From assembly GCA_028718575.1 (NCBI GenBank), contig JAQULN010000001.1:1-24651 (forward strand): a stretch of DNA of 24,651 nt, in the 5' to 3' direction. Within the stretch, counting starts at the first letter, position 1. Each line of letters begins with the position of its first letter. The translations under genes and the position numbers were made by a program. The DNA comes from Candidatus Krumholzibacteriia bacterium (GTDB taxonomy: Bacteria; Krumholzibacteriota; Krumholzibacteriia; LZORAL124-64-63). Below, piece after piece: positions 1,522-20,915 of the stretch. The notes beneath the pieces are model-generated. The model did not search any database and was not told the origin of the DNA. It worked only from the letters and a program-made list of their open reading frames with translations.

Positions 1522-1531
1522 GGAGGTTGCC

Positions 1532-3453: not shown

Positions 3454-3460
3454 GGCGCTG

Positions 3461-3466: not shown

Positions 3467-3560
3467 CCGATGGCCCGCGCAATAACCAGCAACATTTGGC
3501 GAGACTGCGTCCCGGCGACCATCCGACCCGGCGCCGCCGGTCACGCCGGCATCAGCCGGA

Positions 3561-4025: not shown

Positions 4026-4105
4026 GCATGCCTCGCAAGGGGAATGAGGCGCCGGTTCTTCTACATACGACAAGACACGCGCGCAGGTTCCCGCACCCGC
4101 GCCGG

Positions 4106-4142
4106 AAATCAAGAAACGAAAAAGCGGTGGATCCGGCCAGCG
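4106..4142 (-). terminator. Possible intrinsic terminator closing the large minus-strand operon
   Basis: Immediately after the TGA at 4143: an imperfect stem (CGCTGG/CCACCG, one mismatch) followed by the U-rich tract TTTTTCGTTTCTTGATTT, which stands out in this GC-rich DNA. The stem is weak. Confidence 0.4.
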
Positions 4143-5102
4143 TCAGTCGGCGTGTTCGATGACCACCGCCACGAAACCGTCCAGCTCGGCGCGTAAATCG
4201 GGCTTCTGCACGGACTCGGTCTCGATCTGCCCTCGCGGCAGGATCATGCTGTCGGCCAGATGAAACGCCACGAGCTCGGCGCGGCGCTCGGCCAACGCCA
4301 GCGTCTCGGCGGTCGCCACGACCCGCACCGGCGAGTAGGGATGGCGCCGGATCTCGTCGGCGGCGCGTACCAGCCAGTCCGATCCGCGCGCGGTCAAGGC
4401 GCTCTCGCGGCGCAAGAACAACTCGCCGCCGGCGATCTCCAAGATGCGGTCGCCCTGGCGGCGATAATCCAGAGCCGGTAGGCGAAAACTCTCCCCCGCG
4501 TGATTGTAGGTATTCGTTCCCTTGTCCGTCGTCGTCAAAACATAGCTGTAGGGGTAGCCGACCTGCATGATCTGACCTTGGTCGGTGCGTCCGTCCCACT
4601 GCAACATCCGCGGCGGTTTGTCCGAACCGGTGTAGGTGCGGCAGGGACTGCCGCGAAAATCAGTGATCGTCAACTGCCACTGTTGGATCTGGTGGCCTTC
4701 GGGCTCCTCGAGATAGAACGTGGCCACCGGCACCGCGGGGAATTCCGGCAGCCACAGGTGCGGCGGTTGCTCGCTGCGCAGCGGTTCGAGGTTGTTCAGG
4801 TGCGGCTGCAGGCCCGACACCGGGCTGAGCGCCAGGGCGAGTTCGTCCATCGCCGTGTGCAAGGAATCCACCGTGGCCGCGTCGAGGGTAAGAGCGAAGT
4901 CGCTCTTCTCGATGGTCTGCCGTACGCGGTTCTGAGCCTCGACCACCATTTCCGGTAGCGCGGCCCCCGACTGGCCGTCCTGGGTCCATTGCTGTCCCGC
5001 CTGCGGTCCCCCCTTGGCTTGGCTGCCCTGGGAATCTTGGGCCGCGGCGCCGGCGCACAGAGCCGCCAGCAGCATGAGCATCGTCAAGGAGCGGTTCAAC
5101 AT
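4143..5102 (-). CDS. Secreted/periplasmic protein with a TonB-box-like segment, an FlgD-like Ig domain and a degenerate OmpA-like C-terminal domain, 319 aa
   Basis: GAGG RBS, ATG 5102; signal peptide MLNRSLTMLMLLAALCAGAAA|QD. FlgD-like WQLTITDFRG...PPRMLQWDGRTDQGQIMQVGYPYSYVL; OmpA-like GELF..RESALT..G...L...ADEIRRHP...VRVVA...LAERRAELVAFHL. Confidence 0.72.
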   Translation of the reverse strand: MLNRSLTMLMLLAALCAGAAAQDSQGSQAKGGPQAGQQWTQDGQSGAALPEMVVEAQNRVRQTIEKSDFALTLDAATVDSLHTAMDELALALSPVSGLQPHLNNLEPLRSEQPPHLWLPEFPAVPVATFYLEEPEGHQIQQWQLTITDFRGSPCRTYTGSDKPPRMLQWDGRTDQGQIMQVGYPYSYVLTTTDKGTNTYNHAGESFRLPALDYRRQGDRILEIAGGELFLRRESALTARGSDWLVRAADEIRRHPYSPVRVVATAETLALAERRAELVAFHLADSMILPRGQIETESVQKPDLRAELDGFVAVVIEHAD

Positions 5103-5114
5103 GGCAGTCCTCAC

Positions 5115-6497
5115 CTAGTGCAAACGGAAAACGATGGTGATGATACCCCACTGTTCGAGGCTCCCCTGGTCGGCCGCCAAAGGAGCAAAGCGAAACTGGC
5201 GAATCGCAGCGAGCGCGGCCTGGTTGAGATCACGGTGAACCGAGGTCTGCTCCAGGAACACGTTGTCCTTGACACGGCCGTCCGGCAGCACGGTGAAGCG
5301 TACGGCAACGACGCCCTCCCAGCCTTCGCGGCGCGCGCGTTCGCTGTAGACCGGCGGCACGCTCGTCAGAATCTTGCGCCCGGCGATCTGGCCGGAGATG
5401 GTCATGCCGACGCCCTGGCCGCCTTCGAGCCGCGCCTCGGCGACCTTGGGCGCTGGTTCGGCGGCTGCCGCCGCCGCCGCAGCGGACGCCACGATGTCAC
5501 GGCTGGCCGGGACTTCGGCGATGCGGCCGCGGCGCTCGGACAGACCGCCGCCGCCGCCGCCCCCGCTACCGTAGTCCAGGATGGTCTTGCGGCCGCCCTT
5601 GACGCTGCCGCCGCCGCCCTCCGGCACGGTCGCGTCCAGGATGCCGGTCGGCGAACCGCTGCCGCGGGCCGTGCCGGCCGGCGCCAGACCGCCCGCGGGC
5701 GGGTTATAGCCGCCGGCGGCCGGGGTGCGTGCGCTCAGATTGCCGCCGCCGAGGGAAGGCGCCGCCTCGGCGATGGCACCGCCTCTGGGCCGGCTCGCGC
5801 CGGCCGCGGCGACGGTGGGTTCGTTGCCCACCGGCGCCCGCCCGCCGCGGTCCTGCAGACCGGTGTTGGCGGGCTTCATCGTCTGTCGCGCGGGCGGGGC
5901 CGCCGGTCGCGGCGTCTTGTCGTTGCTCGCCTCGAGCTGGCCCGCCAACGCGCGCTCCAGGCGCTCGGTGTCGACCACCTGCCGGACGGGCGCCGGCGCG
6001 GTCCGCGCTTCGAGCGTCGCCGCGGCAACAGCCAGTTCCCTTGGCGGCGCAGCGACCGTAGGCGCCAGCGCGGGCACGTCGGCGGCCGCCAACTGCGGGC
6101 GCTCGGCCGGCAGTTGGGGCGGCGGCGCCATTTGCGGCGCCGGTGCAAGCCGCGGTTCCAGCTTGTCGGGTTCAGGCAGCGTCTTCGGCTGCGGGGCGAT
6201 GTCCGGCGCCGCGGGCTTGGCCTTGTTGACCGCGCTGTCGGTCGTGATGCCGGGGCCCGGCGGGCCGGGCGCCAGCTTGCGCGACGGCAGCTCCTTCAAC
6301 TTGACCTTTTCGGCAACGTCCTCGCCGTAGCGCGCCTCGATATAGGCGATGTGGGTCAGCTCATAGTCTGCGAGCTTTTCCAGCGCGGCGCGACCGACGA
6401 GCAAGGTCAGCAGCAAGAGCAGCAGGGCGTGCACCACGATGCTGGCCAGGAACGATCCGCCGGTTTGGGCGGACCGGTCGATCGCTTGCTGCATCAT
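5115..6497 (-). CDS. tonB: TonB-family energy transducer with a long Pro/Ala/Gly-rich linker, 460 aa
   Basis: N-terminal TM anchor with S-x3-H (ASIVVHALLL); C-terminal TonB_C pattern PPVYSERARREGWEGVVAVRFTVLPDGRV...LNQAALAAIRQFRFAP...ITIVFRL. Follows exbD with an ATGA overlap. Confidence 0.92.
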   Translation of the reverse strand: MMQQAIDRSAQTGGSFLASIVVHALLLLLLTLLVGRAALEKLADYELTHIAYIEARYGEDVAEKVKLKELPSRKLAPGPPGPGITTDSAVNKAKPAAPDIAPQPKTLPEPDKLEPRLAPAPQMAPPPQLPAERPQLAAADVPALAPTVAAPPRELAVAAATLEARTAPAPVRQVVDTERLERALAGQLEASNDKTPRPAAPPARQTMKPANTGLQDRGGRAPVGNEPTVAAAGASRPRGGAIAEAAPSLGGGNLSARTPAAGGYNPPAGGLAPAGTARGSGSPTGILDATVPEGGGGSVKGGRKTILDYGSGGGGGGGLSERRGRIAEVPASRDIVASAAAAAAAAEPAPKVAEARLEGGQGVGMTISGQIAGRKILTSVPPVYSERARREGWEGVVAVRFTVLPDGRVKDNVFLEQTSVHRDLNQAALAAIRQFRFAPLAADQGSLEQWGIITIVFRLH

Positions 6498-6907
6498 CGC
6501 TGATTCTCCCGGGGGCGGGTCGCCAGGGCGATGCGCGGCGCGCCGGCCGCGTCGATCACCGCGATCAACGCCTCGACTTCGCGATACGGCAGGCCCTGAT
6601 CGGCTTTGACCACGGCGACGCCGTGGGGCAGCATTCGGAACATCTCGTCCAGGATCGCGGGGAGTTCTTCCAGGGCCAACACCGTCTCGGCGACCACGAT
6701 GCGCCGATCGCTGGTGTAGAGGATCTCGATGTTGTCGGTGTCATCGGCCTGGCTGGCGGTGGCCTCGGGCAAGTCCACGTCGATCTCCTCGCCCGTCAGA
6801 AACGGAGCGATCATCATCAGGGTCAGCACGACGACCAGCGAGACGTTGATCACCGGCACGACGTTGATCTTGCAGTCCACGGTCAACATTTGCCTGCGTC
6901 GCGCCAC
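6494..6907 (-). CDS. exbD: ExbD/TolR family protein (second copy; TM Asp replaced by Asn21), 137 aa
   Basis: INVVPVINVSLVVVLTLMMIAPF TM segment, VDLPEA, VVKADQGLPYREV..LIAVI..AGA.RIALAT. The GTG start at 6907 is uncertain (alternative ATG at 6889). Confidence 0.9.
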   Translation of the reverse strand: MARRRQMLTVDCKINVVPVINVSLVVVLTLMMIAPFLTGEEIDVDLPEATASQADDTDNIEILYTSDRRIVVAETVLALEELPAILDEMFRMLPHGVAVVKADQGLPYREVEALIAVIDAAGAPRIALATRPRENQR

Positions 6908-6909
6908 GT

Positions 6910-7338
6910 CTAGCCCCCGATGCGGTTGAGCAGAGCCAGGCTCTCGGCTCCGCTGGCCTTGGCGATGTCCAGGGCGGTCACCACGCGGCCCAGAATGACC
7001 TGGTCTTCAGGCACGATGACCACGGTGCGATCCTGGCGGCCGGCGAGTTCGCGGGTCATCGCCTCGGCCAGGCCTTCATCGGACAAGAGCTTGCCATTGA
7101 GCTTGAGGCCGGCCTCGGTAACGGCGATGGTCAACAGATCGTCGTCGAGTTTGTCGGTCGGCTGGACCTGCGGACTCTCGCCGCCAGTTTCCGCTTGGTT
7201 GACGTCGAAGCCGCTCCACATCAGGGCCGGCATGGTGATCAAGAAGACCACGATCAACGTGGTCGTCACGTCGGCCAGCGGCGTAATGTTGGCCTCGTTC
7301 AAGCCTTCTGAACGGTTCTTGCGTTGCTTGCGCGCCAT
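6910..7338 (-). CDS. exbD: ExbD/TolR family protein (first copy; canonical Asp23), 142 aa
   Basis: ANITPLADVTTTLIVVFLITMP TM segment; VVIVPEDQVILGRVVTALDIAKASGAESLAL C-terminal pattern. Confidence 0.92.
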   Translation of the reverse strand: MARKQRKNRSEGLNEANITPLADVTTTLIVVFLITMPALMWSGFDVNQAETGGESPQVQPTDKLDDDLLTIAVTEAGLKLNGKLLSDEGLAEAMTRELAGRQDRTVVIVPEDQVILGRVVTALDIAKASGAESLALLNRIGG

Positions 7339-7347
7339 GGCCTTCCC

Positions 7348-8046
7348 CTAGCCGGCGACGCCGACGGGCTGCGGTTGCTCGGTCGTCGCGCGTTGCCCCG
7401 CCGGTTGGTCGGCGGACGCGCGGCGCCGCACGTACTGGCTGGTCAGCGCAAGCCACACCTCGCGGGCGTCCTCGAGCTGGGCGATGCGGGCGCGGATGCG
7501 GCGCACGAACACGTTGTAGAAGACGGTGGCCACGACTGCGACCACGATGCCGGCCGCGGTGGTCAACAGCGCCTCGGAAACGCCCATCGCCACCACGGCG
7601 CCGCCGCCGGAGCCCGTGCGGGCGATGTCGGCGAAGGCGCGGATGATGCCCACCACGGTCCCGAAAAGGCCGAGCAAGGGCGCGATCGTGGCCATGGTGC
7701 CCAGCACGCCGAGATTGCGCTCCATCTCCACCTGCTCGAGCTCGATGGCCGTGTCCAGCCGCTGCACCTGTTCCGCCGCCGTGCGGTTCATGCTGACGAC
7801 GCCCTGGGTCATCAGGCGCGCGACCGGCGTGTTCTGGCGCTGGCAGAACTCCAGGGCGGCGCGCGGGTTGCCGGCCTTCAGGAAGTTCGCCAGTTCCGCC
7901 ATGAACCGGCGCACGTCCGAGCGCGAGCTGCAGAAGTACAGCAACCGTTCGACGCTGAAACCGACGGTGATGATGGAACAGACCAGCAGCACCAACATCG
8001 TGGGCGAGGTCTGGAAAACCTGGATGACGGACATGTCGCCGAACAT
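7348..8046 (-). CDS. exbB: MotA/TolQ/ExbB proton channel family protein, 232 aa
   Basis: TM1 ending ...FSVERLLYF; TM2 LGTMATIAPLLGLFGTVVGIIRAF; TM3 GVSEALLTTAAGIVVAVVATVFYN. AGGAAGG RBS. Confidence 0.95.
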   Translation of the reverse strand: MFGDMSVIQVFQTSPTMLVLLVCSIITVGFSVERLLYFCSSRSDVRRFMAELANFLKAGNPRAALEFCQRQNTPVARLMTQGVVSMNRTAAEQVQRLDTAIELEQVEMERNLGVLGTMATIAPLLGLFGTVVGIIRAFADIARTGSGGGAVVAMGVSEALLTTAAGIVVAVVATVFYNVFVRRIRARIAQLEDAREVWLALTSQYVRRRASADQPAGQRATTEQPQPVGVAG

Positions 8047-8183
8047 GGGCTGTGCACCTTCCTGCTAGGAACTCCGCGGCTGCGAATTGCACGGAGTCGG
8101 TCTTGCAAATCGCTCCACCGGTTGCGGCGGCGAGCCGCCGAGGCACCGCTGGTGCTCGTAGTCCCTTACCGTTGCTCCATCAG

Positions 8184-8198
8184 GCAAGGAGCATGCCA
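8184..8198 (-). promoter_or_regulatory. Putative sigma54 (-24/-12) promoter upstream of exbB
   Basis: Minus strand TGGCATGCTCCTTGC matches TGGCA(C)-N5-TTGC with exact GG-N10-GC spacing. It lies in the only sizeable intergenic gap inside the operon, 14 nt after the TPR stop. Confidence 0.65.
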
Positions 8199-8212
8199 CG
8201 CGCTGGGCCGAA

Positions 8213-11200
8213 TCAGCCGCCGGCAATCACGCCGGCCGCCTGGATGGCGGCGATACGCTGCTCGGCCAGGGTCCGCCACTCGGGCTTGCCGCCGGCCGCG
8301 ATGATGCTGCGGTACGCGTCGACGGCTTTCTGCCAGTCGCCGCGTTCTTCGGCGATGCGGCCGATCTCCGCGAGCGCCGCGATGCGGAACGGATCGGCGC
8401 CGCCGCCGGCCGCGGCCGCCGCGAAGCGCGCCAACGCCGCGTCGACGTCGCCGGCCTTGACCAGGCATTCACCCTGCCGGAAGCGGATCTCCAGGAGCGG
8501 CGCCCCGGCCACCGCGGCCGCCTTTTCGTAGCTGCTGACCGCGCGCTGCCAGTCGCCCAGTTCCTCTTGATACAGGGCCGCGATCTGCAGCCAGATGCCT
8601 CGTGCGTTCTCGTGGTCGGGATAGTCGGCGGCGAACCGCTCCAGACTGCCGATGGCGGCGTGCCACTGCTCCTGCTCCTGGTAGCTGATGGCAGCATTGT
8701 AAGCCGCCAGCGGGGCGTACTCCCCGCCCGGGAACAGATCGGTCAGCGTCTCATAGGCCGCCGCGGACTCGTCGTACCGCTCGAGCTTGAACAGGACGGT
8801 GGCCGCGCGCAAATGCGCCAGTTCGGCCAGCTCGTGGCGCGGATACGTAGTCGTGAAGTTGCTGAAGCCGGCCAGGGCCTGCAACTGCGACTCGGCCCGA
8901 TAATAGCTTTCAGCCAGATAGAACAGCGCGCCGGGCGCCGACTCGCTCGTCGGGTAGTCCAGCGTAACGCGTTCGAACGCCTCGGCGGCCTGACGGAACT
9001 GCCCGTTCGCGAAAGCTTCCTGACCCTTGTTCCAGTAGATGTCGGCCGCCAGCGCGCTGTCGGGACGGCGCTGCAGGTATTCGGTCATGTCGCGGCCGCT
9101 GCGGTAGAAGCAGCTCTGGATGCCGAGTTCGGCGTCGTCGACGCGCGGGTCGCCGGGGAACTTCTCGGCGAAGGCCTGGAACCGCGCGATGGCCAGATCG
9201 TCCTGGCCCAGGTTGTAGGAGCAGTTCGCCAGGCCGAACGCTGCGTCGGCGGCATGCTCGCCGGTGGCGAATTGGGCCTGCAGGCGGCTGTAGCTGCGGT
9301 CGGCCGCCTCGAAGCGGCCGAGCCCGAACTGCGTGTCGGCGATGCGATAGAGCGCCGTGGCGGCTTCCGGCGCTTGCGGGAAGCGGGTCAGCAGCGTGTT
9401 CCAGGCTTCCAGCGCCTGCTCGTAGTACTGCAACCGGTAGAAGCAGTCGCCCTGGTTGGCCAGCGCCGTCGGCGCCGCAGCGTCGTCGGGGTTCTTGGCC
9501 AGGAAATCGGTGAACTGCCGCAGCGCGTCCTCGTAACGATGCTGGTTGAAGAAGATCGATCCGACGGCCAGGCTGTTGGTGCCCTTCTCGCTTTCGGCGT
9601 TGGCCAGCACCCGCAGGAAGCGGTCTTGCTCGGCCAAGGCGTCTTCGTACTGGCCGGCGCGGCTGAGCGCGGCCACCAATCCTTGCAAGGACGGCGCCGC
9701 GACGTTGCTGCGCGGATAGCCGGTCAAGACCAGGCGGTACATGCCAGCCGCCTCGCGGTAGAGACCCTGGCTGAAATACGCTTCACCGAGATGGTAGTAG
9801 GTTCGCCCGCGCCAGTGGCTCGGTGTCGGCAAGAGCTTGCTCGCAATGTAGTTGTAGTTGGTCAACAACCGATCCAACTGTTCCGTGCGCAGGTACGCCA
9901 GCGTGGACAGGAAGAGGGCCCGCTCGGCGACGTCGGTGTTGACGTGCTTGTCGGTCACGTTCTGGAAGGCGAGGATCGCCTGCTTGTATTCTGCGTGCTG
10001 GAAGTGGCTGAAACCCTTCAGCACGCGCACGCGCGGCGCCAGCGGATCGCCCGGATATCGTTTCAAGAACTCATCGGCCAGGACGATGGCCTGACCGTGG
10101 TTGCTCTCCTGCGCGTACGTGTAGACTACCTTGTGCATGGCCGCGCTGGCCACGGTGCTGGCGGGGAAACGGCGAATCACATCGGTCCAGGCGAAGATCG
10201 CCTCGCTGGGACGCCCCATTTGCAGGCAGCAGTTGCCGATCAGGTACTGCGCGTAGGCGACGACCTTGGCGTCCGGGAAGCCGTCGACGATCTGCTGGAG
10301 CTGGCGCATGGATTCGTCGTAGCGCTGTTCGCGATACGTCACGCACGCAATCTTGTAGCGGGCATTCGGCACGAACGGACTGTTCGGGAATGTGTCCAGG
10401 AAATCGCGATAGCTGCGCACCGCCACGTCGTTCTGGCCGGACCGGTAGAACGCCTCGGCGATGCTGTAGGCGACGTCGTCGGCCAGTGCGCTCTCGGGGT
10501 ACTTGCGCAGGATCTGCCGGTAGCGCTGGATGGCCAGGATGTACTGGCCCGTCTCCTCCAATGTGCGGCCAAGGAAGTAGAGGCCGCGATCGCTGGGCAC
10601 CTGCTCGAAATAGTTGCGCGCTTCATCGAAACGCTGGTCGTGGAACGCGAACAGACCGAGCGCGAACTTGACCTCCGGCAGATCGCCGTAGCCCGGCCGC
10701 CGCTCGAGCAGCTCGCGGTAGGCGCCTTCCAGCCGCAGCCAGTTGCCTTGCACGATGTAGGCCTGGCCCAGTTGGTAGAGCCCCTCGGCGAGCAGGAAGG
10801 TGTCCTGGTAGCGGGTCACCAGTCGGTTGTACTTTTCGACGGCTTCGTCGAACCGGCCGAGATTGAACAGGCACTCCCCTTCGCGCAACAAGACAGAAGC
10901 CTCGAGATACTTGTCGCGCCCCCGGGCCCCGCGCACGGCAGCGTACTCGCGTAACGCGCCGGCCCAGTCGCCAGCGGCCGCGTAACACTCGCCGAGCATG
11001 AACTGCGCGGCCGCGACTCGATCGCTGCGGCCGTAAGACTGCACGAACAATCGGTACTGCTGCATCGCGGCCGATTTGTCGGCGCCCTCGGCGTACGCCT
11101 TGCCGGCCGCCTGCCAGAGCAGATCCTCCGGCGGCACGAGCGACCGTTCGGCGGCCTGGCTTGCGGCGGCCAAGCCGAGGCTCACCACGAGAACGCCGAT

Positions 11201-11230
11201 CAGGAGCAGGCTGGCAACGTTGGACTTCAT
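8213..11230 (-). CDS. Large periplasmic tetratricopeptide-repeat protein (CpoB/YbgF/BamD-like repeats), 1005 aa
   Basis: GAGGGGAG RBS; ATG 11230 overlaps the upstream stop (ATGA). Signal peptide MKSNVASLLLIGVLVVSLGLAAASQA|A; more than 20 repeats of the type A.Y..G..Y...G.Y..A...F......(Y/F)P.S..A..A. Confidence 0.93.
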   Translation of the reverse strand: MKSNVASLLLIGVLVVSLGLAAASQAAERSLVPPEDLLWQAAGKAYAEGADKSAAMQQYRLFVQSYGRSDRVAAAQFMLGECYAAAGDWAGALREYAAVRGARGRDKYLEASVLLREGECLFNLGRFDEAVEKYNRLVTRYQDTFLLAEGLYQLGQAYIVQGNWLRLEGAYRELLERRPGYGDLPEVKFALGLFAFHDQRFDEARNYFEQVPSDRGLYFLGRTLEETGQYILAIQRYRQILRKYPESALADDVAYSIAEAFYRSGQNDVAVRSYRDFLDTFPNSPFVPNARYKIACVTYREQRYDESMRQLQQIVDGFPDAKVVAYAQYLIGNCCLQMGRPSEAIFAWTDVIRRFPASTVASAAMHKVVYTYAQESNHGQAIVLADEFLKRYPGDPLAPRVRVLKGFSHFQHAEYKQAILAFQNVTDKHVNTDVAERALFLSTLAYLRTEQLDRLLTNYNYIASKLLPTPSHWRGRTYYHLGEAYFSQGLYREAAGMYRLVLTGYPRSNVAAPSLQGLVAALSRAGQYEDALAEQDRFLRVLANAESEKGTNSLAVGSIFFNQHRYEDALRQFTDFLAKNPDDAAAPTALANQGDCFYRLQYYEQALEAWNTLLTRFPQAPEAATALYRIADTQFGLGRFEAADRSYSRLQAQFATGEHAADAAFGLANCSYNLGQDDLAIARFQAFAEKFPGDPRVDDAELGIQSCFYRSGRDMTEYLQRRPDSALAADIYWNKGQEAFANGQFRQAAEAFERVTLDYPTSESAPGALFYLAESYYRAESQLQALAGFSNFTTTYPRHELAELAHLRAATVLFKLERYDESAAAYETLTDLFPGGEYAPLAAYNAAISYQEQEQWHAAIGSLERFAADYPDHENARGIWLQIAALYQEELGDWQRAVSSYEKAAAVAGAPLLEIRFRQGECLVKAGDVDAALARFAAAAAGGGADPFRIAALAEIGRIAEERGDWQKAVDAYRSIIAAGGKPEWRTLAEQRIAAIQAAGVIAGG

Positions 11231-12522: not shown

Positions 12523-12545
12523 CGTGCCTCCGCTTGCGGTGCGCA

Positions 12546-15500
12546 TCACTTCACCACCGCGATCTTGCGGCGCAGATCGAAGCCGCTGCCTTGGATGCGA
12601 CAGACGTAGCCGCCGTTGCCGACCAGCCGGTTCTTACCGTTGCGGCCGTCCCAGACGTACTGCGCAGTCGTCCCGCCGGTCACTTGCATGCGGTCCTGGA
12701 AGACGATCGCGCCGTAGAGGTCGTAGATCGTGATGTTGACGGGTCCGCTCGAGACGGCCTGGAAGAGGATCACCGTCGACTCGCTCCCGGCCCGGAACGG
12801 ATTGGGGCGGTTGGTGATCTCGCGATCGGTCGTCAGCCCCGTCGCCGTGTAGAGCACGACCGTCTTGACGGCCTCGCGCACGCCGCCGGTTTCTTCGGCG
12901 AAGAAGCGCAGGGTGTGCACGCCCGGCGCAGCATAGGCAGCGCCGAGTTCGGCCAGGGTGAACGACCCGGCGTAGAGGTTGCCGGGAAGCGGGGTGTCGG
13001 TGATGTCCACGTCGAACCAGACGCCCTGCACCGGCTCGGGGCCTGCCACGACCGAAACCAGGGAGATCGCCGTCGTCGGCAGCACGTAGTAGCCGTCGCC
13101 GTACGGCGCCGCCTCAGGCAAGAACCGCGGCGTGGTGATCGGCGGACCGAGCAGTTCGATCGCCAGCAAGGCGGACATCGCGTCGCCCGCCGCGGCCTGG
13201 ATCAGCAGGTCCTGGGAACCGTGAGCATTGACGTACAGGTCGCAGGTGGCTTGGCCGTTGACGTCGGCGATCAACTCGGCGCTGGCCGCGCGCAGCGAGC
13301 CGAGCCCGGCGTCGCCCGCCAGCAGGAACACCGACAGCGGCGTGCCGGCCACCACGTTGCCCGAGGCGTCGGAGGCCCGCACGCGCAGGTAGATCCGGTC
13401 GCCCGGCCGCAACGGCCGCAACAGCGGCTGCCCGGGCACGGCCTCCGCTTCCAGGATGCAGATCGAGACCGGCGCCGGCCGGACGACGATCACCGAGCTG
13501 AAGAACTGCTCGCCGGTCGCGTCGCTGACCTTGATGTAGATGGACTCGGCGCGGTCGTAGCTCTGGAAGGGGATCTCGCACACGCCGCTATTGGTCGTAC
13601 CCACGGTATCGGCCAGGACGCCGGCCGGCGTGAGCGCGGGATCGGGCCGCGGCGCGTTGCCGCTGTAAGCGGTCAGGATGAACGAGCGGTCGTCGCTCGT
13701 GACGATCTGACCGGTGACGATGTCCACGCGGCGCACGCGCATGGCGAACGGAACGCCGGCGATCGCCGTGTCGGGCACGTCCACCGCGTAACGCACTCCC
13801 TCGGGCACCACGGTGAGCACGTCGCTGTAGGACGTGCGGCCGCGGCTGTCGCGCACGCGGATGACGAGGCTCTCGCTCGCCGGATAGTACTGGCCGCCGA
13901 TGACCGCCTCGCCGGCGACCAGCGTGCCGCTGGTGATGCCCAGAACCGACGTCGCAGCGCTGCGATCCGGCTTGAGCGCCGTCATCTCGAACTGGCCGCC
14001 CGCCTGGATCCGCTCGCCGGTCTCCGGGTTCACCAGTCGCACGGTCAGGGTGAAGGTGGCCGGCGGTCCCGCGGTCACGACCGGCGGCGTCGGCAGAATG
14101 ATCCGGTACTCCGCCTCGTTGACCGGGATGTCCACGCGGCCGGAACTGACCGTCGGGTGGTCAGGATCGGTGGCGAACACGCCGATCAGACCGGGATTGC
14201 CGAGCACGATGCGCATGTCGCGGCTGCCGCCGATGAACGGCGCGTCCAGATCGTCGGCATCCACCAGATCGAGTTGGCCGCCGTCGCTCGCCAGTTGGAT
14301 CCTGCCGTCGTTGATCGTGCGCACCAGATTCCAGAACTGGTCGACGGCGCGCACGGTCAAGGTGAACGGCACCTCGGCCTGCTGCGTCAGGGGCGCGCCC
14401 GCCTTGCCGGAGCCGCTCAGGCTGCCGGGAGCGGGCGTCTCGCCGGGCGCCACGATCTGGATGCGCTTGAAGCCGTCGGCGACAAGCCGGCAGGTGTTGC
14501 TGACCCCGACAATGCCCTGGTCGTCGGCGACCTGGACGAAGATGTCCTCGGCGCGGCTATACGCCTGATTGATCAAACGGTAGCCGCTCTCCAGCATACC
14601 TTGAGCGACCTCGAGATGCCCCTGGCCGGGCAAACCGGTCTGGGCGCTCATGACCTGGATGTCGAAGAGCCGATCTTGCGTGGTGACACGCAGGCCCGTG
14701 TTGCTGTCGATCAGCTCGACCGTCAGCGGGAACGTGGTCGGCGGCCCGACGACCGCCGTGTCCGGCAGCGTGACGGCGTAATAGAGGCCGCCGGACTGCA
14801 TGACGATCACCGTGCTGAACGCTTCGCGGCCGTAGTCGTCGTCGACGCGGATAATGATGTCCTCGACCGTGCTGTAGCTTTGCGCATTCAGCACGCAGAC
14901 GCCGCCGATCAACTGGGCCTCGGCAATGCCCAACACGCCGTTGGCCGCGCCTTGATTCGGCAGCAGCGGCGTCAACCGGAAGCGGTTGCTCGCCGTCGGC
15001 ACGACGTTGCCCGACACCGGATCGATCAACCGCACCGTGATCTGGAATCCCGGCACCGGCCCGGTCGAGGCGACCGCCGGCACGGTGATCTGGTACGCGT
15101 ACGGCGGATCGACCGGAATCAGCGTTGTCTGCGCTGGCTTATTGAGATCCTGCTCGTCGTAGATGGTCACGCCGACAATGCCCTCGTCGGTCAAGAAACC
15201 GTTGAACGTGCGGCGGCCGTTGATGAACGGCACGAAGTTCTGATCCGGGTTGCCGGGATTGCTGAACGAACCGTCGCTGGCGACCAGGCGCAGGTTGCCC
15301 CCGCTGGTGGTGTCGGCCAGGTTCCAGTACTGGTCGACCGCGCGCGCGGTCATCGGGAAGACCTCGCCCGAGCGCTGCGTGAGCGACGCGCCGCTCTTGC
15401 CCGTTGCCTCGTATGCCGGGATGCCGGGTTCTACGACCTCGCCGGGCGCCACGATCTGCAGCCGCTTATAGCCGTCGGCCGCGAGCGTAAAGACCGGGCT

Positions 15501-18500
15501 GGCGCCGTCGAGACCCGTCGAGTCGAGCACCGTGACGTAGATGTTCTCGGCGCGCGTGTAGCTCTGCTGGAAGGTCACCCGGCCCTCGTTCAGGCGCTGG
15601 TCGGTCACGCCGACCACGCCCTGGCCGGGGCCACCGGCGGCCGCGTTGATGCCCACGGCGATCCGCCGGTCCTCGCGGATGATGGTCTGGGTGTCGACGT
15701 CGCGCAGGCGCACGGTCACCGGGAACGTGGCCGGCGGGCCCACGCGCAACGTCTGCGAAGCGTCGACCGTCACCACGTACTCGAGCCCGTTCGGCACCAT
15801 GTGAATGGTGGAGCTGTAGCTCTGGCGGCCCGAGACGTCGGTGATGCGCAGGACGATGTCCTCGACCGTGTTGTAGGCCTGGTTCGCGATCGTCACGGTG
15901 CCGGCGGCAAGTTGCGCGGTGGTCACGAGCGGCGTGCTGCTGGCCGGCTCGAGATTGGCCTTCAGAGCGCTGATGGTCACCCAGTTGTTGGCGGCCGGCA
16001 GCGGATCGCCGTTCTCGTCCACGAGGCTGATCGTCATCGCGAAGGTGCTCGGCGGCCCGACGGCCGCCGTGGCCGGTGTCTCGATGCGGTAGGTCGCCCC
16101 CTGTTCGACGGCCAGGATGACCGATTGGCCGGTGATGTCGGTATGATCGAGCGCCGACGCCGTGAGCGTCACGTAACCGGGGTTGATCAAGAACACCGGC
16201 ATGATGATCTCGCCGTCGACCAGCGGCTGATCGTTGTTCAGCGGGTTGGTCGGGCTGAGCGAGCCGTCGTCGCTGGCCAGATGCACGCGTTCGGTCGCGC
16301 TGGTCACGAGGTTCCAGAACTGGTCCGTCCCGCGGATGCGCGCGTCGAATTCGAGGCTGGCGGTCTGCGGCGTCGGCGTGCCGGTCTTGCCATCGGGCTC
16401 GGGACCGCCCGGCTGCGGCGTCTCGCCGGGCAACAGCAGCATCAACCGGACGAACTGGCCGGCGGTCACGCCGACGGTCGAGGTGTCGTTGACGGCGGGC
16501 TGGATCAAGTCGGCGGCGGTCAAGTGATGAGTTGCCGCGGTCTTGAAGTAGAGGTCGAAGAGGCCGGAACCGTCGATGCCCAGCGCCTGGTCGTTGGCCG
16601 AGATCATCTGGAAGAACTGGCTGCTCGCGAAGTGCACCTGCGGGCGCGCCGGCACCTGGTTGTACCACGCGTCGGTCGCGAAAACCTGCGCCTGCACGGG
16701 CTCGCCGGCTTGCACCGGCAGCGGCGTGCCGACCTTGCCGGGCGGGATGCCCGGGGTGCTGGTCTCGCCGGGCAGCAGCAGCAGCAGGTCAGCGTAGTCC
16801 TGCGCGTCGGCGAAGACGTTGAAGGTGTTGCTGCTGTCGGTCAGGGCGTAGGTTTCCTCCCGCACGAAGAGGCGCACGTCCTGGCCGGTGCGGGTGATCT
16901 GGATCGGCCCGCGCCAGGCACCCTGGAAGCTGCCGCTGCCCATGCCCTGGCCGAGGTTAACGCTGGTCGGCGACAAGATGCCGGTGCCATGGCTGACGAA
17001 GAGCGTGACATCGGTGGCGTAGTCGTCGATATGGTTGCCGAAGATGTCGCGGGCGATCACGGTGACGTTGGGCAGCCAGGAGCCGGCGCGGTGATCGGGC
17101 AACGAACTCAGCACGTCGTTCGGCGTCGGATTCGAGCGGTTGTTGATGCCGATATCGAAGTGATCGATCAAGCCGGCCTTGACCGGGATGGTGGTGAACG
17201 CCGAGCGGCCGGTCGCCTGATCGGTCACCACGATCGTCTGCCGGTTGGGGTCGGCCAGCGTCACCAGCGCCACCTGGAAATCGCCGAGGTTGTCGTTGAG
17301 CTGCTGCGGGTTGGCCGGCAACTGGGCCGCCGGGTCGCTACTGGAGAAGTGGATGGTCATCGGCAGCGCGGGCGAGCTGTCGCTGATGGGGTTCCAGTAC
17401 TGATCGGTCGCGTAGACCCGCGTGTTGAACGGCACGCCGGCGTCCTGCGTCGCAGGCTGACCGAGCTTGCCGTCGTCCTCGATCGAGTCGAAGATGCCCG
17501 GCGCCAAGGTCTCGCCGGGAGCCCGCACCACGAGCCGTTGCCAGGCCGCGGGCGACACCCCGACCGGGCTCGAGAGGCTCGCCTCGAGGCCGCTGCTCTG
17601 CGCCCGCAGCACCTGGGCACTGGTGGCGGTGCGGAAGACGACGCGGATTTCCGTCGGGTTGCTGATCTGCACGATGTTGCCCGGGTAGTCGGGCAACTGG
17701 AAATAGCCGGTGGGGCAGCTCAGGGTGACGTTGCGGTTGCCCGGCGCCAGGTTGTTGTAGCGGTCGACCGGCCGCAAGGTGACCGGCGTGATGATCTGAC
17801 CGGCCGTCACCGGATTGGGCGTGCCGAGATTGCCGCTGAAATCGGGGTCGTTCAGACCGTTGACCCAGGTCTCGCCGGGGAACGTCATCAAGATCTTCTC
17901 ACAGGGGCCGTTGGTCACCTGGAACGCCGGCGACGCGCGCACGATGCCGCTGTCGACGATGATGTAGGCTGAGAAGCCGCGTTTGGTGACCTGCACGAGC
18001 GCGTCGAGCTGACCGTTCACGAACGTGCTATTGCTCGTCAGGAGGTAATCGGCGCTCTCGTCGGTGGAGCCGATGCGGGCGCGCAGCGAGACCTGGCCGT
18101 TCAACGGGAAGACGTTGCCGTTGGCGTCGCGGGCGATGATGCGGATGTTGAACGGAATCGTGGTGACCTGCAGATCGGACGGGTTCCAGACGCCGGTGTC
18201 GAACTCGAAGTCCGCCAGGCCCTCGGGGTTGATGACGACGTCGCTGCGGCTCGTCGCGGTGACGGCGCCGCTGGCGGTCGTCGTGACTCGGGTCGTACCG
18301 GCGCGGATCAGGCGCAGGTTGTAGCTGGTCTCCGGGTTACCGCCCATGACGGCGGTCGCCGGCAGGACCACGCCGGGATCGGGGTCGTCGCAGCTCCAGG
18401 CGATGGTCGGGTACGGACCCGCCATCACCGGGTTCCAGTGTTGGTCGATAGCGTAGACGCTCACTCCGTCGAAGGTGGCGCCGGAGGTCTGGCTGTTGGG

Positions 18501-19313
18501 CGTGCCGGATTTGCCGGGGCTGACGCCCGGCGTCAGTTGCTCGCCGGCCAGCAGCAACATGATCGACGCCAGCGGCCCGGGCAAAAGCGGCGCCACGGCC
18601 GCTTGCCCCTGGGCCGGCTGGGTCTGGCCCTGGTAGACGACCGTGCCGTCCACGGTCAGCACGTTCTCGCGCGTGACCGGATCGGTGCCCCAGAACGTGA
18701 CCGACAGGCTGACCACGCCTTCGAAGAACGAGGTGCCGGCCACGGTGATGGTCGGACCGGTGGAGAAATGCCCGACGGCGGCTGACAGCACCACGTTGTC
18801 GCGGAAGTTGAGCACCGTGCCGCCGCCGCTGTCGAGCGCGGTCAACGTCACGGTGATCGGCGTATCGACGTACTTGGTGCCGGAAGGCACGGCGACGGTG
18901 AAGCGGTCCACCGGGTCGTAGCTATCGATCAGGACCTCGGCCGCCGGCACGGAGGGGTCGTCGGCGTCGGCCACGCGCAGGCGCACGGGTCGGCCCGCCG
19001 CCAGGAACCGCAGGCCGTCGAACTGGCGCTCGCCGTTTTGCAGATAGGCGCTCCCGGGCAGATCGGCGGCCACGTCCGGCGACGAGAGAACGGCGTTGAT
19101 GAAGTCGGCAGCGGTGTCGGTGGTGCCGTCGGCGTTGACCGCACGGACATGCACACTGAACGTCAAGCCCCGCGTCACCGCAGGACGGCCCTGCACGATA
19201 TGAGGATTGACGACGGTGATCTCCAGGTGATCAAACGCCGCCGCGACGCCGGCGAGACCGCACAGCAGAGCCCCCACCAGAGCCGACCGCAGAATCCAGG
19301 TGCGTTGCTTCAT
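12546..19313 (-). CDS. Giant secreted Ig-like-repeat surface protein with a C-terminal T9SS-type-A/FlgD-like sorting domain, 2255 aa
   Basis: GAGG RBS, ATG 19313; signal peptide MKQRTWILRSALVGALLCGLAGVAAA|F. Beta-rich T/V/P/G composition and two repeat families. C-terminus ITNRPNPF...ITIYDLYG..V....VWDGRNGKNRLVGNGGYVCRI....RRKIAVVK. No catalytic motif recognised. Confidence 0.88.
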   Translation of the reverse strand: MKQRTWILRSALVGALLCGLAGVAAAFDHLEITVVNPHIVQGRPAVTRGLTFSVHVRAVNADGTTDTAADFINAVLSSPDVAADLPGSAYLQNGERQFDGLRFLAAGRPVRLRVADADDPSVPAAEVLIDSYDPVDRFTVAVPSGTKYVDTPITVTLTALDSGGGTVLNFRDNVVLSAAVGHFSTGPTITVAGTSFFEGVVSLSVTFWGTDPVTRENVLTVDGTVVYQGQTQPAQGQAAVAPLLPGPLASIMLLLAGEQLTPGVSPGKSGTPNSQTSGATFDGVSVYAIDQHWNPVMAGPYPTIAWSCDDPDPGVVLPATAVMGGNPETSYNLRLIRAGTTRVTTTASGAVTATSRSDVVINPEGLADFEFDTGVWNPSDLQVTTIPFNIRIIARDANGNVFPLNGQVSLRARIGSTDESADYLLTSNSTFVNGQLDALVQVTKRGFSAYIIVDSGIVRASPAFQVTNGPCEKILMTFPGETWVNGLNDPDFSGNLGTPNPVTAGQIITPVTLRPVDRYNNLAPGNRNVTLSCPTGYFQLPDYPGNIVQISNPTEIRVVFRTATSAQVLRAQSSGLEASLSSPVGVSPAAWQRLVVRAPGETLAPGIFDSIEDDGKLGQPATQDAGVPFNTRVYATDQYWNPISDSSPALPMTIHFSSSDPAAQLPANPQQLNDNLGDFQVALVTLADPNRQTIVVTDQATGRSAFTTIPVKAGLIDHFDIGINNRSNPTPNDVLSSLPDHRAGSWLPNVTVIARDIFGNHIDDYATDVTLFVSHGTGILSPTSVNLGQGMGSGSFQGAWRGPIQITRTGQDVRLFVREETYALTDSSNTFNVFADAQDYADLLLLLPGETSTPGIPPGKVGTPLPVQAGEPVQAQVFATDAWYNQVPARPQVHFASSQFFQMISANDQALGIDGSGLFDLYFKTAATHHLTAADLIQPAVNDTSTVGVTAGQFVRLMLLLPGETPQPGGPEPDGKTGTPTPQTASLEFDARIRGTDQFWNLVTSATERVHLASDDGSLSPTNPLNNDQPLVDGEIIMPVFLINPGYVTLTASALDHTDITGQSVILAVEQGATYRIETPATAAVGPPSTFAMTISLVDENGDPLPAANNWVTISALKANLEPASSTPLVTTAQLAAGTVTIANQAYNTVEDIVLRITDVSGRQSYSSTIHMVPNGLEYVVTVDASQTLRVGPPATFPVTVRLRDVDTQTIIREDRRIAVGINAAAGGPGQGVVGVTDQRLNEGRVTFQQSYTRAENIYVTVLDSTGLDGASPVFTLAADGYKRLQIVAPGEVVEPGIPAYEATGKSGASLTQRSGEVFPMTARAVDQYWNLADTTSGGNLRLVASDGSFSNPGNPDQNFVPFINGRRTFNGFLTDEGIVGVTIYDEQDLNKPAQTTLIPVDPPYAYQITVPAVASTGPVPGFQITVRLIDPVSGNVVPTASNRFRLTPLLPNQGAANGVLGIAEAQLIGGVCVLNAQSYSTVEDIIIRVDDDYGREAFSTVIVMQSGGLYYAVTLPDTAVVGPPTTFPLTVELIDSNTGLRVTTQDRLFDIQVMSAQTGLPGQGHLEVAQGMLESGYRLINQAYSRAEDIFVQVADDQGIVGVSNTCRLVADGFKRIQIVAPGETPAPGSLSGSGKAGAPLTQQAEVPFTLTVRAVDQFWNLVRTINDGRIQLASDGGQLDLVDADDLDAPFIGGSRDMRIVLGNPGLIGVFATDPDHPTVSSGRVDIPVNEAEYRIILPTPPVVTAGPPATFTLTVRLVNPETGERIQAGGQFEMTALKPDRSAATSVLGITSGTLVAGEAVIGGQYYPASESLVIRVRDSRGRTSYSDVLTVVPEGVRYAVDVPDTAIAGVPFAMRVRRVDIVTGQIVTSDDRSFILTAYSGNAPRPDPALTPAGVLADTVGTTNSGVCEIPFQSYDRAESIYIKVSDATGEQFFSSVIVVRPAPVSICILEAEAVPGQPLLRPLRPGDRIYLRVRASDASGNVVAGTPLSVFLLAGDAGLGSLRAASAELIADVNGQATCDLYVNAHGSQDLLIQAAAGDAMSALLAIELLGPPITTPRFLPEAAPYGDGYYVLPTTAISLVSVVAGPEPVQGVWFDVDITDTPLPGNLYAGSFTLAELGAAYAAPGVHTLRFFAEETGGVREAVKTVVLYTATGLTTDREITNRPNPFRAGSESTVILFQAVSSGPVNITIYDLYGAIVFQDRMQVTGGTTAQYVWDGRNGKNRLVGNGGYVCRIQGSGFDLRRKIAVVK
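13473..16460 (-). repeat. Higher-order protein repeat (A-B-B)x3, about 330 aa period
   Basis: A units start at about 16460, 15476 and 14477. B units (Y.I..P....GPP.TF..TV.L.D...G...G.L......L..G......Q.Y..AE.I.I.V.D..G....S) start at about 16094, 15785, 15101, 14786, 14114 and 13796. A-to-A spacings are 984 and 999 nt. Confidence 0.85.
16460..18581 (-). repeat. Four dispersed type-A protein repeats (L.L..PGE...PG...GK.G.P..Q.AG..F...V.A.D..WN) in the N-terminal half of the giant protein
   Basis: Copies begin at about 18581 (PGPLASIMLLLAGEQLTPG), 17909 (GPCEKILMTFPGET), 17549 (AAWQRLVVRAPGETLAPG) and 16802 (QDYADLLLLLPGETSTPG). Boundaries approximate. Confidence 0.85.
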
Positions 19314-19450
19314 CGCTGTCCTCTGCCTCGTGTCCGTTGCTAATTGCACTGGCGCCCGAGCGGGCTGCTGGCAAGCTGCCCGTCCCGCTGCCGGATTCGT
19401 CTCGATTGGCGGCACTTCGACACGCTGTAGCACGCCACGACCATCGCGGA

Positions 19451-19465
19451 TCAAGAGATATGCCA
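19451..19465 (-). promoter_or_regulatory. Putative sigma54-like promoter upstream of the giant surface-protein gene
   Basis: Minus strand GCG-TGGCATATCTCTTGA: good -24 element and correct spacing, but TTGA instead of TTGC at -12. It shares GCGTGGCAT with the site at 8184-8198. Confidence 0.5.
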
Positions 19466-19607
19466 CGCCTCTGGTCCTTTCGCCGCGCCGCCCGCGCCGA
19501 ATGGACGCCCGGCGCAACGCCGGCCGCGACAGCGGACCCGGCCGCGGCGTCGGCGCCCTGTCCAGCGGAATGCATGCGGGGAATCTCGCGGCCTCTCGCG
19601 CGGCGAC

Positions 19608-20915
19608 TCACGCGGAGACCGGCTCGGCGTCGGAGCTGCGCCGCGAAAGGAGCCGGCGCTGCTGAGCCATCACGTACTGGCGGATCAACTGCGTCCCGTG
19701 GCGGTCGCCCGGCCCTTCGGTCAGGAACTCCAGGCCGAGATCAGTCTGGTAGCGGCCGCGGGGACGTGACGTGACCAGCACGCGGCGCACGGCCCCCGTG
19801 AGTTCCACTGGCTGGGGCAACTCCTCGCCGGACAGCCACATGCGCACCCGGCTGTCTTGGGTCAGCTCCGCCGGGGGCTCGCCGGTCAAGGTCACGGCGA
19901 GACCGGAGAAGCTCAGGTCCACGACTTCGGCATCGACGGTCTGGGCCGGCGCCGTCACGATCGCACAGCTCGGGTCGCGCAGTTGTTCCTCGTCGCTCGC
20001 CGGCGGCGGCAACACCGCGAGCCGCGCCACGATCGGCTTCTCGGGTTGGACGCGGAAATAGCGGCGGCGTTGATCCAGGTGAAAACGCTCCGGCAGATCG
20101 CAGAGCACGCACGGCAGATCGCCCACGCCCTCCAGCGGCAACGCCACTTGCCCGCGGCACCGCGTCCGGAAGCGGAAGACCCGGCCGGCGGCGCCGAACG
20201 ACCCCTCGAGTTCGATCTCGCCGGCGAGCTTGCTGAGCGCCGCCTTGGCGAAATCGACGCTGATCGCCAGCAGCAAGCGGTCGTTCTGCTTGACCTGTTG
20301 CACGATCACGCCGCAGCCGCGCTCGACTTCGTCGTCGCCGACGGGCACGAGCAGTTCGATGTCGTGTTCGAAGCGCGTGAGATAACTGCCGACCCGGTTC
20401 AGCGCGACGGGGCTATCGACGCACTCGAGCCGCGCCAGGTCGCGCGGCAGCAATTGGGCCGCCAGGTCGTCCTCCCAGCCGGACTGGCGTTGCGACTCGT
20501 ATTCCCCGCGCGACGCGACATCGGCCATCAGATAGAGGTTGCCGGCGCGCGTCTGCTGCCGCAGGATGAAGCTGCGCAGGCCTCGCAGCGCCCGCGGGCG
20601 GCCGTCCGGTGGGACGATCTCCCAGGCGCCGATGGGTCGCTTGGCCGGCACCCTGGCGACCAGGGCCTTTTTGAATTCCTCGAGCAGGACCTCGTGCCGG
20701 GCGGGATCACGCAGCGCCTTGGCCAGCGGCTGCGAGATGCCGACGTAGATCTGGTGGATGGGGCTGTTGGCCACGGTGACGCGCGCGAGGTAGGGCATCG
20801 CGAACGACCACTCCCGCACCTGGCTGACTTGGGTGCGGACCTCGAGCCCGGAGCCGAAGGTCTCTAATGCGTGGCGGCCGGCTTGACCGATGGCGGTCAG
20901 AGTCTCGCGAATCAT
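19608..20915 (-). CDS. PilZ-domain (c-di-GMP receptor) protein, YcgR-like, with an additional N-terminal domain, 435 aa
   Basis: QRRRYFRV (RxxxR) and DLSFSG (D/NxSxxG) motifs, followed by a PilZ-type barrel (...GAVRRV.....LGLEF.......LIRQYVMAQQR). The preceding FGAAGRVFRFRT..LPERF segment resembles the YcgR N-terminal barrel. Confidence 0.87.
   Translation of the reverse strand: MIRETLTAIGQAGRHALETFGSGLEVRTQVSQVREWSFAMPYLARVTVANSPIHQIYVGISQPLAKALRDPARHEVLLEEFKKALVARVPAKRPIGAWEIVPPDGRPRALRGLRSFILRQQTRAGNLYLMADVASRGEYESQRQSGWEDDLAAQLLPRDLARLECVDSPVALNRVGSYLTRFEHDIELLVPVGDDEVERGCGVIVQQVKQNDRLLLAISVDFAKAALSKLAGEIELEGSFGAAGRVFRFRTRCRGQVALPLEGVGDLPCVLCDLPERFHLDQRRRYFRVQPEKPIVARLAVLPPPASDEEQLRDPSCAIVTAPAQTVDAEVVDLSFSGLAVTLTGEPPAELTQDSRVRMWLSGEELPQPVELTGAVRRVLVTSRPRGRYQTDLGLEFLTEGPGDRHGTQLIRQYVMAQQRRLLSRRSSDAEPVSA

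Follow-up and report, generated by a model that had tools for sequence, protein, structure and literature searches.

What does a motor of the Ton type drive in an operon that holds no TonB-dependent transporter (TBDT)? This question is raised by a 24,651-nucleotide stretch of DNA (the window; positions 1 to 24,651 of contig JAQULN010000001.1, assembly GCA_028718575.1) from a Candidatus Krumholzibacteriia bacterium, in which eight translationally coupled genes, all on the minus strand, occupy positions 4143–19316. In reading order these encode a giant surface protein (12546–19316), a barrel of the PorV/PorQ family (11227–12549), a tetratricopeptide repeat (TPR) protein (8213–11230), an ExbB/TolQ-family proton-channel subunit (7348–8046), two ExbD/TolR-family subunits (ExbD1, 6910–7338, and ExbD2, 6494–6907), a TonB-like force transducer (5115–6497) and a periplasmic protein with an immunoglobulin-like (Ig) and an OmpA-like domain (4143–5114). 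The host metagenome-assembled genome (MAG; 3.05 Mb, 75% complete, about 68% G+C) carries this cassette on its contig C1 and belongs to the phylum Krumholzibacteriota of the FCB (Fibrobacterota–Chlorobiota–Bacteroidota) group. We find that the eight genes form a real, strictly conserved and dedicated envelope module. Its parts belong to known families; their combination is absent from the literature searched, in which no description of the cassette in Krumholzibacteriota or Elusimicrobia was found. By its families the cassette would belong with the Ton/Tol/Agl-type force-transducing systems, and we consider it rather probable that its products make up one dedicated machine, driven by the proton motive force (PMF) and spanning the envelope from motor to barrel and adhesin.

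Coordinates, junctions and profile matches agree with the first-pass annotation of this DNA, made from the sequence alone, which had described eight co-oriented, tightly coupled genes of these families. Read from the DNA, the giant and barrel genes overlap in a GTGA or TGATG, and the barrel stop and TPR start share an ATGA. An ATGA overlap likewise joins the ExbD2 and TonB-like genes, while ExbB and ExbD1 are 9 nt apart, ExbD1 and ExbD2 2 nt, and the TonB-like and last genes 0 to 12 nt; the only sizeable intergenic gap, of 166 nt, lies between the TPR and ExbB genes. The genome loci compared with this one number 52, 20 of them from GTDB (genus, family and class relatives) and 32 from genome_contigs, some of which are the same places. 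The order giant, barrel, TPR, ExbB, ExbD, ExbD, TonB, OmpA-like is kept in all 20 GTDB loci and, as far as each contig reaches, in all 32 of the others. A distant, 2.3-Mb low-GC MAG (G041, locus L111) keeps the eight-gene order as well, at 27–37% identity per protein; the nearest Atlas neighbours of its OmpA-like protein are Elusimicrobiota and WOR-3 clusters. On metagenome contigs each gene was found in its expected place, namely TonB in 42 of 43, ExbD in 36 of 36, ExbB in 28 of 28, TPR in 16 of 16, barrel in 13 of 13 and giant in 12 of 12 cases. Across about 130 loci neither half of the cassette was seen without the other where the contig is long enough, and no locus examined has a TBDT within the cassette. 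As the genes are collinear in every related locus examined, the arrangement is far beyond chance. A single locus (L187, on the 2.16-Mb contig Ga0209507_1000001) gave no tblastn match for a TonB-like gene between ExbD and OmpA-like; this gene is probably too divergent rather than absent.

The cassette occurs in two paralogous types, which we refer to as tier 1 and tier 2. These are about 25–40% identical protein by protein, differ in the length of the giant (about 2250 aa versus about 1000–1150 aa) and can, both complete, share one genome (loci L044 and L059 of G012). Trees of the barrel, ExbB and OmpA-like proteins each split the two types (SH-aLRT 93–100) and have common subclades, and because the three trees are congruent the eight genes have duplicated and diverged together, as a unit. 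Used as a marker, the OmpA-like protein was detected in 137 of the 208 species of Krumholzibacteriota and, among 125 high-quality genomes, in 86. In a set of 41 Krumholzibacteriota genomes (G000–G040, with G000 the host), 28 hold both a barrel orthologue and the OmpA-like marker, 12 hold neither and one, 72% complete, holds the barrel only; these counts are descriptive and not a statistical test, the relatives not being independent. The synteny search across genomes and MAGs that the first-pass annotation had called for thus finds the order conserved in genome, distant-MAG and metagenome loci, and its central idea, a conserved, dedicated unit of type IX secretion system (T9SS)-type cargo, PorV-type barrel and Ton/Tol/Agl-type motor with no TBDT, is supported by gene order, congruent trees and co-occurrence.

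We then turn to what the individual proteins are likely to be, beginning at the cell surface. The giant protein, 2255 aa from the ATG at 19316, carries a signal peptide, Ig-like repeats and, at about residues 2165–2255, a predicted C-terminal domain (CTD) that resembles the T9SS type-A kind, lies at the extreme C-terminus and has an NPF motif and a K-rich end. This CTD scores 21.4 bits with TIGR04183 (cut-off 23). It also matches the PorU and M6i models in their CTD parts, as do the C-termini of all ten giant orthologues compared; the five tier-2 ones match that of PorZ too, and TIGR04183 matches eight of the ten, one over the cut-off. A likeness of the giant's body to Big_1/invasin-type Ig repeats is a lead only, and a search of the giant sequence against the PDB found no relative.

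The barrel matches the PorV family model NF033709 at 128.1 bits (127.1 in the genome search) against a cut-off of 90, and stays under the equivalog cut-offs of PorV (NF033710, 47.3 versus 250) and PorQ (NF033711, 63.6 versus 220). Its AlphaFold2 (AF2) model, with a mean predicted local distance difference test (pLDDT) score of 78.8, comprises 14 main strands followed by a C-terminal Ig domain of the FlgD_ig type (35.8 bits, residues 329–395). In a Foldseek search the model comes closest to the PorV chains found in two T9SS translocon complexes from F. johnsoniae (8gl6_F and 6h3i_F; TM-score by target 0.62–0.64; E-values 7e-11 and 2e-9), with FadL/TodX next, and the earlier description of a PorV/PorQ-like barrel is borne out by the NF033709 score and these structural matches. 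Because barrels with an even number of strands usually have both ends on the inside, the Ig tail is predicted to be periplasmic. The barrel alignment (A2) held no stretch conserved enough for a metagenome scan. PorV/PorQ-family barrels are greatly expanded in the phylum, with matches in 41 of 41 Krumholzibacteriota genomes (mostly 7–13 each, and in places 8 to 16); G041 has 29 such matches, 19 of which exceed the cut-off.

All the domains of a Ton system, MotA_ExbB, ExbD and TonB_C, are present in the cassette, and all fall short of the equivalog models. ExbB (232 aa) matches PF01618 at 104.9 bits, scores 101.6 with TolQ (cut-off 221) and 90 with ExbB TIGR02797 (cut-off 206), and has ExbB (7.5e-19) and then TolQ (1e-13) as its nearest solved sequences. 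ExbD1 (142 aa) and ExbD2 (137 aa) match PF02472 at 52.9 and 65.6 bits, the equivalog models giving 20–44 bits against cut-offs of 123–216. The two differ at the transmembrane Asp position: ExbD1 has an Asp (D23, 7270–7272), kept in all cassettes, whereas ExbD2 has an Asn (N21, 6845–6847), as do 12 of 13 tier-1 cassettes (L049 keeps Asp), and all tier-2 cassettes have Asp. A heterodimer with one Asp thus appears to be derived and specific to one cassette type. The TonB-like protein (460 aa) matches PF03544 at 58.1 and TIGR01352 at 60.9 bits, with TonB equivalog models at 25 bits at most (cut-offs at least 265), and comprises an N-terminal transmembrane helix with His23, a Pro/Ala/Gly-rich linker of about 300 aa and TonB_C at 381–459. 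The TPR protein (1005 aa), secreted and without a lipobox, consists of CpoB/YbgF-like and BamD-like repeats (TIGR02795, 328 bits over 12 stretches, and a YfiO match); its 101-bit match to PorW/SprE lies below the cut-off.

The last protein of the cassette (323 aa) belongs to no sequence family and was assigned by its predicted fold. In an AF2 model based on 15 orthologues the first 115 residues are disordered, whereas the Ig and alpha/beta domains are confident (pLDDT about 90). The alpha/beta domain matches OmpA-like peptidoglycan-binding folds, namely PA0833, YiaD, MotB, Pal and the C-domain of PorE (Foldseek E-values down to 2e-7), and AlphaFold DB clusters named OmpA-like match the protein over its full length. 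The alignment of its orthologues (A1) has no conserved lipobox Cys. In the disordered N-terminus lies a motif that resembles a TonB box, ALPEMVVEAQN in this stretch's protein (DNA about 4926–4958); it reads ALPEMVVEAEN.VRQ, with an invariant Glu, in A1 and LTVEGEDRIRIEF in the second cassette type. Distant members of the OmpA-like family have the variants LPDVVVKA, LDDVVVRG and LPDVEVTGE, and the host's own TBDTs have similar sequences, RLEEVVVYG and RAEEVVVVAE, at their TonB-box position. Four further distant OmpA-like homologues lie on contigs that end at the gene itself. On account of these variants and this likeness the motif is a credible candidate for a TonB box carried by a non-TBDT protein. 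In the OmpA-like domain the LAxxRAxxV motif (residues about 265–285; A1 columns about 330–360), which we take to mark the peptidoglycan-binding type, occurs in tier 1 only; tier-2 proteins have no Arg here. Among 1.84 billion representative proteins the OmpA-like marker has 1890 matches, 259 of them below 1e-30, some of the weaker ones being Ig-repeat proteins.

Is the cassette simply the Ton or Tol system of its host? The host genome has eight MotA/ExbB matches and five TBDT matches, the TBDTs all on contigs other than that of the cassette. Two of the five TBDTs lie near an ExbB match, one of them, on contig C19, forming part of a full ExbB-ExbD-ExbD-TonB cluster. Elsewhere contig C306 carries an ExbB...TonB-TPR arrangement and contig C27 TolQ-TolR followed by a PD40 propeller protein. 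Over most of its length the cassette ExbB shares only 31–36% identity with the other ExbB copies of the host, a figure that rises to 42% in one segment of 108 aa. Because the host has separate Ton clusters with TBDTs and a TolQ-TolR-PD40 locus, the cassette motor is an extra, specialised paralogue. The C19 cluster (L097, 2608–14122, minus strand) offers a parallel of its own: it encodes a SusC-like TBDT (1033 aa), an unknown protein of 1024 aa, a PorV-family barrel (310 aa), an unknown protein of 542 aa, ExbB, ExbD, ExbD, TonB (220 aa) and a TolC-like protein, so that a PorV-family barrel stands between a TBDT and a Ton motor. We considered and rejected two simple accounts. That the cassette is a housekeeping Ton system beside an unrelated adhesin conflicts with the separate TBDT clusters of the host and with the inheritance and duplication of the cassette as a unit; that it is the Tol-Pal system of the lineage conflicts with the TolQ-TolR-PD40 locus and with the third of the species that have no cassette. 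The earlier statement that the cassette has no TBDT is confirmed, and the host's TBDTs are seen to have their own Ton clusters elsewhere.

Is it then a form of T9SS? Profile searches of the cassette proteins found neither a T9SS translocon nor a PorKLMN core among them. T9SS searches of six genomes (G000, G007, G012, G016, G037 and G039) gave SprA_N matches in the host (contig C241), in G012 (a 2393-aa ORF) and in G039, and a PorU score above the cut-off in G012, G037 and G039, the last two of which have a PorV-like gene beside it. The host has a PorU fragment adjoining a PorV-family barrel on contig C142. The PorU model has more than 40 matches per genome, mostly to a CTD segment at the end of an open reading frame (ORF), and PorU was found in each of five high-quality genomes without the cassette. 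The GldK, GldL, GldM and GldN models gave nothing over the cut-off in five or six Krumholzibacteriota genomes, and as no control genome matched either, this does not show absence; the matches of the GldK model are FGE-sulfatase domains, with 98 bits at most against a cut-off of 350. In G012, three ORFs that lie upstream of SprA and resemble GldL/M/N in size were rejected as antisense artefacts of high-GC sequence. A role of the cassette as the general T9SS motor was likewise rejected, since PorU persists in genomes without it. The profile search proposed in the first-pass annotation thus located SprA and PorU outside the cassette and failed to detect GldK/L/M/N, with no control matching, and the suggestion made there of a motor-swapped or minimal T9SS is not borne out: no translocon is encoded in the cassette, the genes for SprA, PorU and a PorV next to PorU are found at other places, and PorU occurs without the cassette. 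Because the cassette lacks a translocon and cassette-free genomes keep PorU, the giant is most simply read as a client of a separate T9SS, the cassette being neither a minimal T9SS nor a general T9SS motor.

These observations can be combined in a working scheme. In the inner membrane, an ExbB pentamer and an ExbD1/ExbD2 heterodimer would form a 5:2 motor of the Ton/Tol/Agl type that drives the long TonB-like arm. In the periplasm, the C-terminal domain of this arm would most likely pair, strand to strand, with the TonB-box-like peptide of the Ig and OmpA-like protein, and the TPR protein would act as a scaffold; with it, the Ig-OmpA protein and the barrel's Ig tail may connect the motor to the barrel. 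In the outer membrane, the barrel with its Ig tail would anchor the Ig-repeat surface protein, which would be exported by means of its CTD via the cell's separate general T9SS (SprA, PorU and PorV elsewhere). Force would then act on the barrel-adhesin complex and the peptidoglycan tether, so as to reposition, tension, release or move the surface protein and its barrel relative to peptidoglycan, much as TolA pulls TolB-Pal or Agl-Glt moves its adhesin complex. Physical contacts, direction of force and cellular role are all inferred here.

Several described systems bear on this scheme. Judged by architecture, the closest appears to be the Agl/Glt core complex described by Luciano et al. (2011). 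This conserved operon, for which no function is known, consists of aglR, aglQ, aglS, gltD, gltE, gltG and gltC together with one additional gene; it is present in Gammaproteobacteria, in one Betaproteobacterium, in Geobacter and in Fibrobacter succinogenes, and gave rise to the gliding machinery of Myxococcus (PMC3169522). Like it, the cassette combines in one operon one TolQ-like and two different TolR-like subunits, a Pro-rich TonB-like transducer and a large secreted TPR protein, and the two also have in common that a genome can hold multiple paralogous copies; at this level of architecture the Myxococcus analogy drawn by the first-pass annotation is apt. In Myxococcus Agl-Glt the core is coupled to outer-membrane barrels and a surface adhesin, as we propose for the cassette. 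Unlike the Agl/Glt machinery, the cassette has one TPR gene instead of three, a PorV-family barrel and a T9SS-CTD Ig-repeat protein in place of GltA/B/H/K and CglB, and an Ig and OmpA-like protein with a TonB-box-like motif; NF033768 (the AgmX/PglI tail) gave 21 bits with the cassette proteins against a cut-off of 40.

With Tol-Pal the cassette would have in common a 5:2 motor, a long transducer that takes hold of a periplasmic partner by a short, disordered peptide at the partner's N-terminus, an OmpA-like domain akin to that of Pal and CpoB-like TPR repeats (TIGR02795). It differs in having no TolB propeller, in an OmpA-like protein without a lipobox (Pal is a lipoprotein), in its two ExbD/TolR paralogues, barrel and giant surface protein and, compared with a housekeeping Tol-Pal, in its absence from a third of the phylum and in the separate TolQ-TolR-PD40 locus of the host. 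The adjoining genes for a PorV-family barrel and a very large CTD surface protein resemble T9SS pairs (PorV and CTD cargo, PDB 6h3i and 8gl6; PorQ-PorZ; SprB-SprF), and in gliding Bacteroidota the adhesin remains coupled to a PMF motor, as is proposed here. In contrast to the Bacteroidota pairs, the barrel lies below the PorV/PorQ equivalog cut-offs and has an extra C-terminal Ig domain, the motor is of the ExbBD/TonB type and not GldLM, and the organism stands outside Bacteroidota. The canonical FCB-type Ton cluster, exemplified by the host's own C19 and C306, also has ExbB, two ExbD and TonB_C, yet with a short TonB (220–225 aa, versus 460 aa in the cassette) and a neighbouring TBDT, of which the cassette has none. 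In F. succinogenes S85, another bacterium of the FCB group, a cluster comprises FSU_2396 (OmpA), FSU_2397/2398 (TPR), FSU_2400 (ExbB), FSU_2401/2402 (ExbD) and FSU_2403 (TonB), the products of which rise on cellulose, the OmpA and TPR proteins being found in an outer-membrane-vesicle cellulase complex (PMC6851124). By its described gene content this is the same family set minus barrel and giant, with the OmpA gene first and with no PorV-like barrel or giant gene reported. Finally, a 2025 survey of periplasmic force transducers describes TPR-tolQ-tolR-tolR clusters with vWA transducers in bacteria of the PVC (Planctomycetes–Verrucomicrobia–Chlamydiae) group and argues that further outputs of 5:2 motors await discovery (PMC12204202).

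How probable, then, is one machine? The stand-alone analogues just described suggest that two separate modules might merely stand side by side under common regulation, a T9SS cargo with its cognate barrel (as in PorQ-PorZ, PorV-PorU and SprF-SprB) next to an envelope-maintenance system like Tol-Pal or like the Agl/Glt core, the aglRQS and gltD/E/G/C genes of which occur without barrel or adhesin (PMC3169522), or like the TPR-tolQ-tolR-tolR-transducer clusters of PVC bacteria (PMC12204202). The large number of PorV-family barrels in Krumholzibacteriota genomes, and the 166-nt gap after the TPR gene, would fit such a division. We nevertheless regard it as unlikely: the ATGA overlap of barrel and TPR genes ties the halves together, neither half stands alone in roughly 130 loci wherever the contig is long enough, the halves have been duplicated jointly, with congruent trees and coinciding presence and absence, and a Tol-like locus that includes a TolB-like propeller is already present in the host.

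Two further readings keep the genes together and give the force another use. A CTD cargo and a PorV-like barrel encoded with the motor could point to a Ton-energised route for export, insertion or release of the giant, that is to a T9SS relative in which ExbBD-TonB replaces GldLM/PorLM and the barrel is the carrier; that the GldKLMN models stay below cut-off while these genomes encode SprA, PorU, PorV and, per genome, over 40 ORFs with a CTD would agree with this. We think this quite improbable, as there is no translocon in the cassette and a 14-strand barrel cannot pass a folded Ig array of 2255 aa, SprA lies elsewhere, the PorU of cassette-free genomes makes the T9SS independent of the cassette, and the Gld searches, having no positive control, do not show that GldKLMN are absent. 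The place of the FadL/TodX substrate channels as the barrel's next structural relatives after PorV, together with the TonB-box-like motif on the OmpA-like protein, would suit a TonB-dependent uptake device, in which the giant captures a polymer or hydrophobic substrate, the FadL/PorV-type barrel is the channel and the TonB-box protein serves as adaptor or plug in trans. The likeness, by described genes, to F. succinogenes FSU_2396–2403, which rises on cellulose and was proposed for cellodextrin import (PMC6851124), adds to this. Such a device is very unlikely in our estimation, for no enzyme, binding-protein or inner-membrane transporter gene was found within the cassette or conserved beside it in related loci, and in the giant a predicted T9SS CTD is combined with Ig repeats of a kind typical of adhesins.

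The single PMF-driven machine linking motor to barrel and adhesin is therefore the reading we adopt, and "adhesin-coupled Ton/Agl-type machine" seems to us a plausible description by analogy. Its most specific form, in which a Ton/Agl-type motor moves, tensions or retracts the adhesin via a TonB box on the soluble Ig-OmpA protein, we put forward tentatively, as a possibility with the odds clearly against it. Several observations count against one machine. Gene linkage alone is no proof of physical coupling. About one in three species of the phylum does not have the cassette, which is thus dispensable; the predicted CTD of the giant falls just below the TIGR04183 cut-off; and the loss of LAxxRAxxV in tier 2 suggests that peptidoglycan binding may not be general and may differ between the types. 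Support from RNA is weak and consists of two short contigs from one anaerobic-digester metatranscriptome, one of 212 nt, identical to the TonB-like gene (5966–6177), and one of 254 nt with 2 mismatches in the TPR gene (10677–10930), and DNA carry-over is possible.

As to the surroundings of the cassette, the PilZ gene that the first-pass annotation had placed upstream is indeed there (19608–20915, minus strand, 291 nt upstream of the giant gene): its product of 435 aa matches PF07238 at 31.2 bits and has about 280 residues N-terminal to the PilZ domain. The gene precedes the cassette only in the genus (50–53% identity) and in one further genus (G024, 31%), and its product, a possible cyclic di-GMP-responsive regulator, would be a lineage-specific neighbour and not a core part. 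Downstream, an ORF at 3561–4112 (minus strand; at most 183 aa, no family, no signal peptide) is found in the same position, 62–77% identical, only in the genus and some family members. The flanking genes (1–3522 and 21044–24372) encode an EF-G/TypA-like GTPase, a TrmB-family regulator, a DAGK/YegS-like lipid kinase, a GlgX-type isoamylase and a class-V aminotransferase. A scan of the locus found no sigma-70 promoters, and terminator-like sites were at chance level. DNA near-identical to the window occurs in biogas-fermenter, landfill, wastewater, sludge and soil metagenomes.

The Ton, Tol, Mot, Agl and GldL motors form one proton-driven family whose known outputs are few, namely TBDT plugs, TolB-Pal, flagella, Glt and the T9SS; a motor that acts on a PorV-type barrel and a giant protein of the T9SS style would add a new one. 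If the proposed coupling is true, the cassette represents a class of surface-adhesin machine not described before, found in uncultured phyla that are FCB-related or Elusimicrobiota-like. After Agl-Glt of Myxococcus and GldLM-SprB of Bacteroidota, it would then be the third system, assembled independently of these, for gliding by means of adhesins or for adhesion coupled to force. It would also provide the first TonB-type interaction with a target that is neither a TBDT nor TolB, and because the TonB-box-like peptide lies on a soluble Ig-OmpA protein, the proposed binding is open to tests in vitro with recombinant domains, for which the host need not be cultured. The cassette further bears on the role of the ancestral Agl/Glt core complex and on the handling of T9SS-type cargo in phyla with no detectable PorKLMN core. 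Digesters, landfills, sludge and soils, in which its hosts are common, are habitats where attachment to surfaces matters ecologically.

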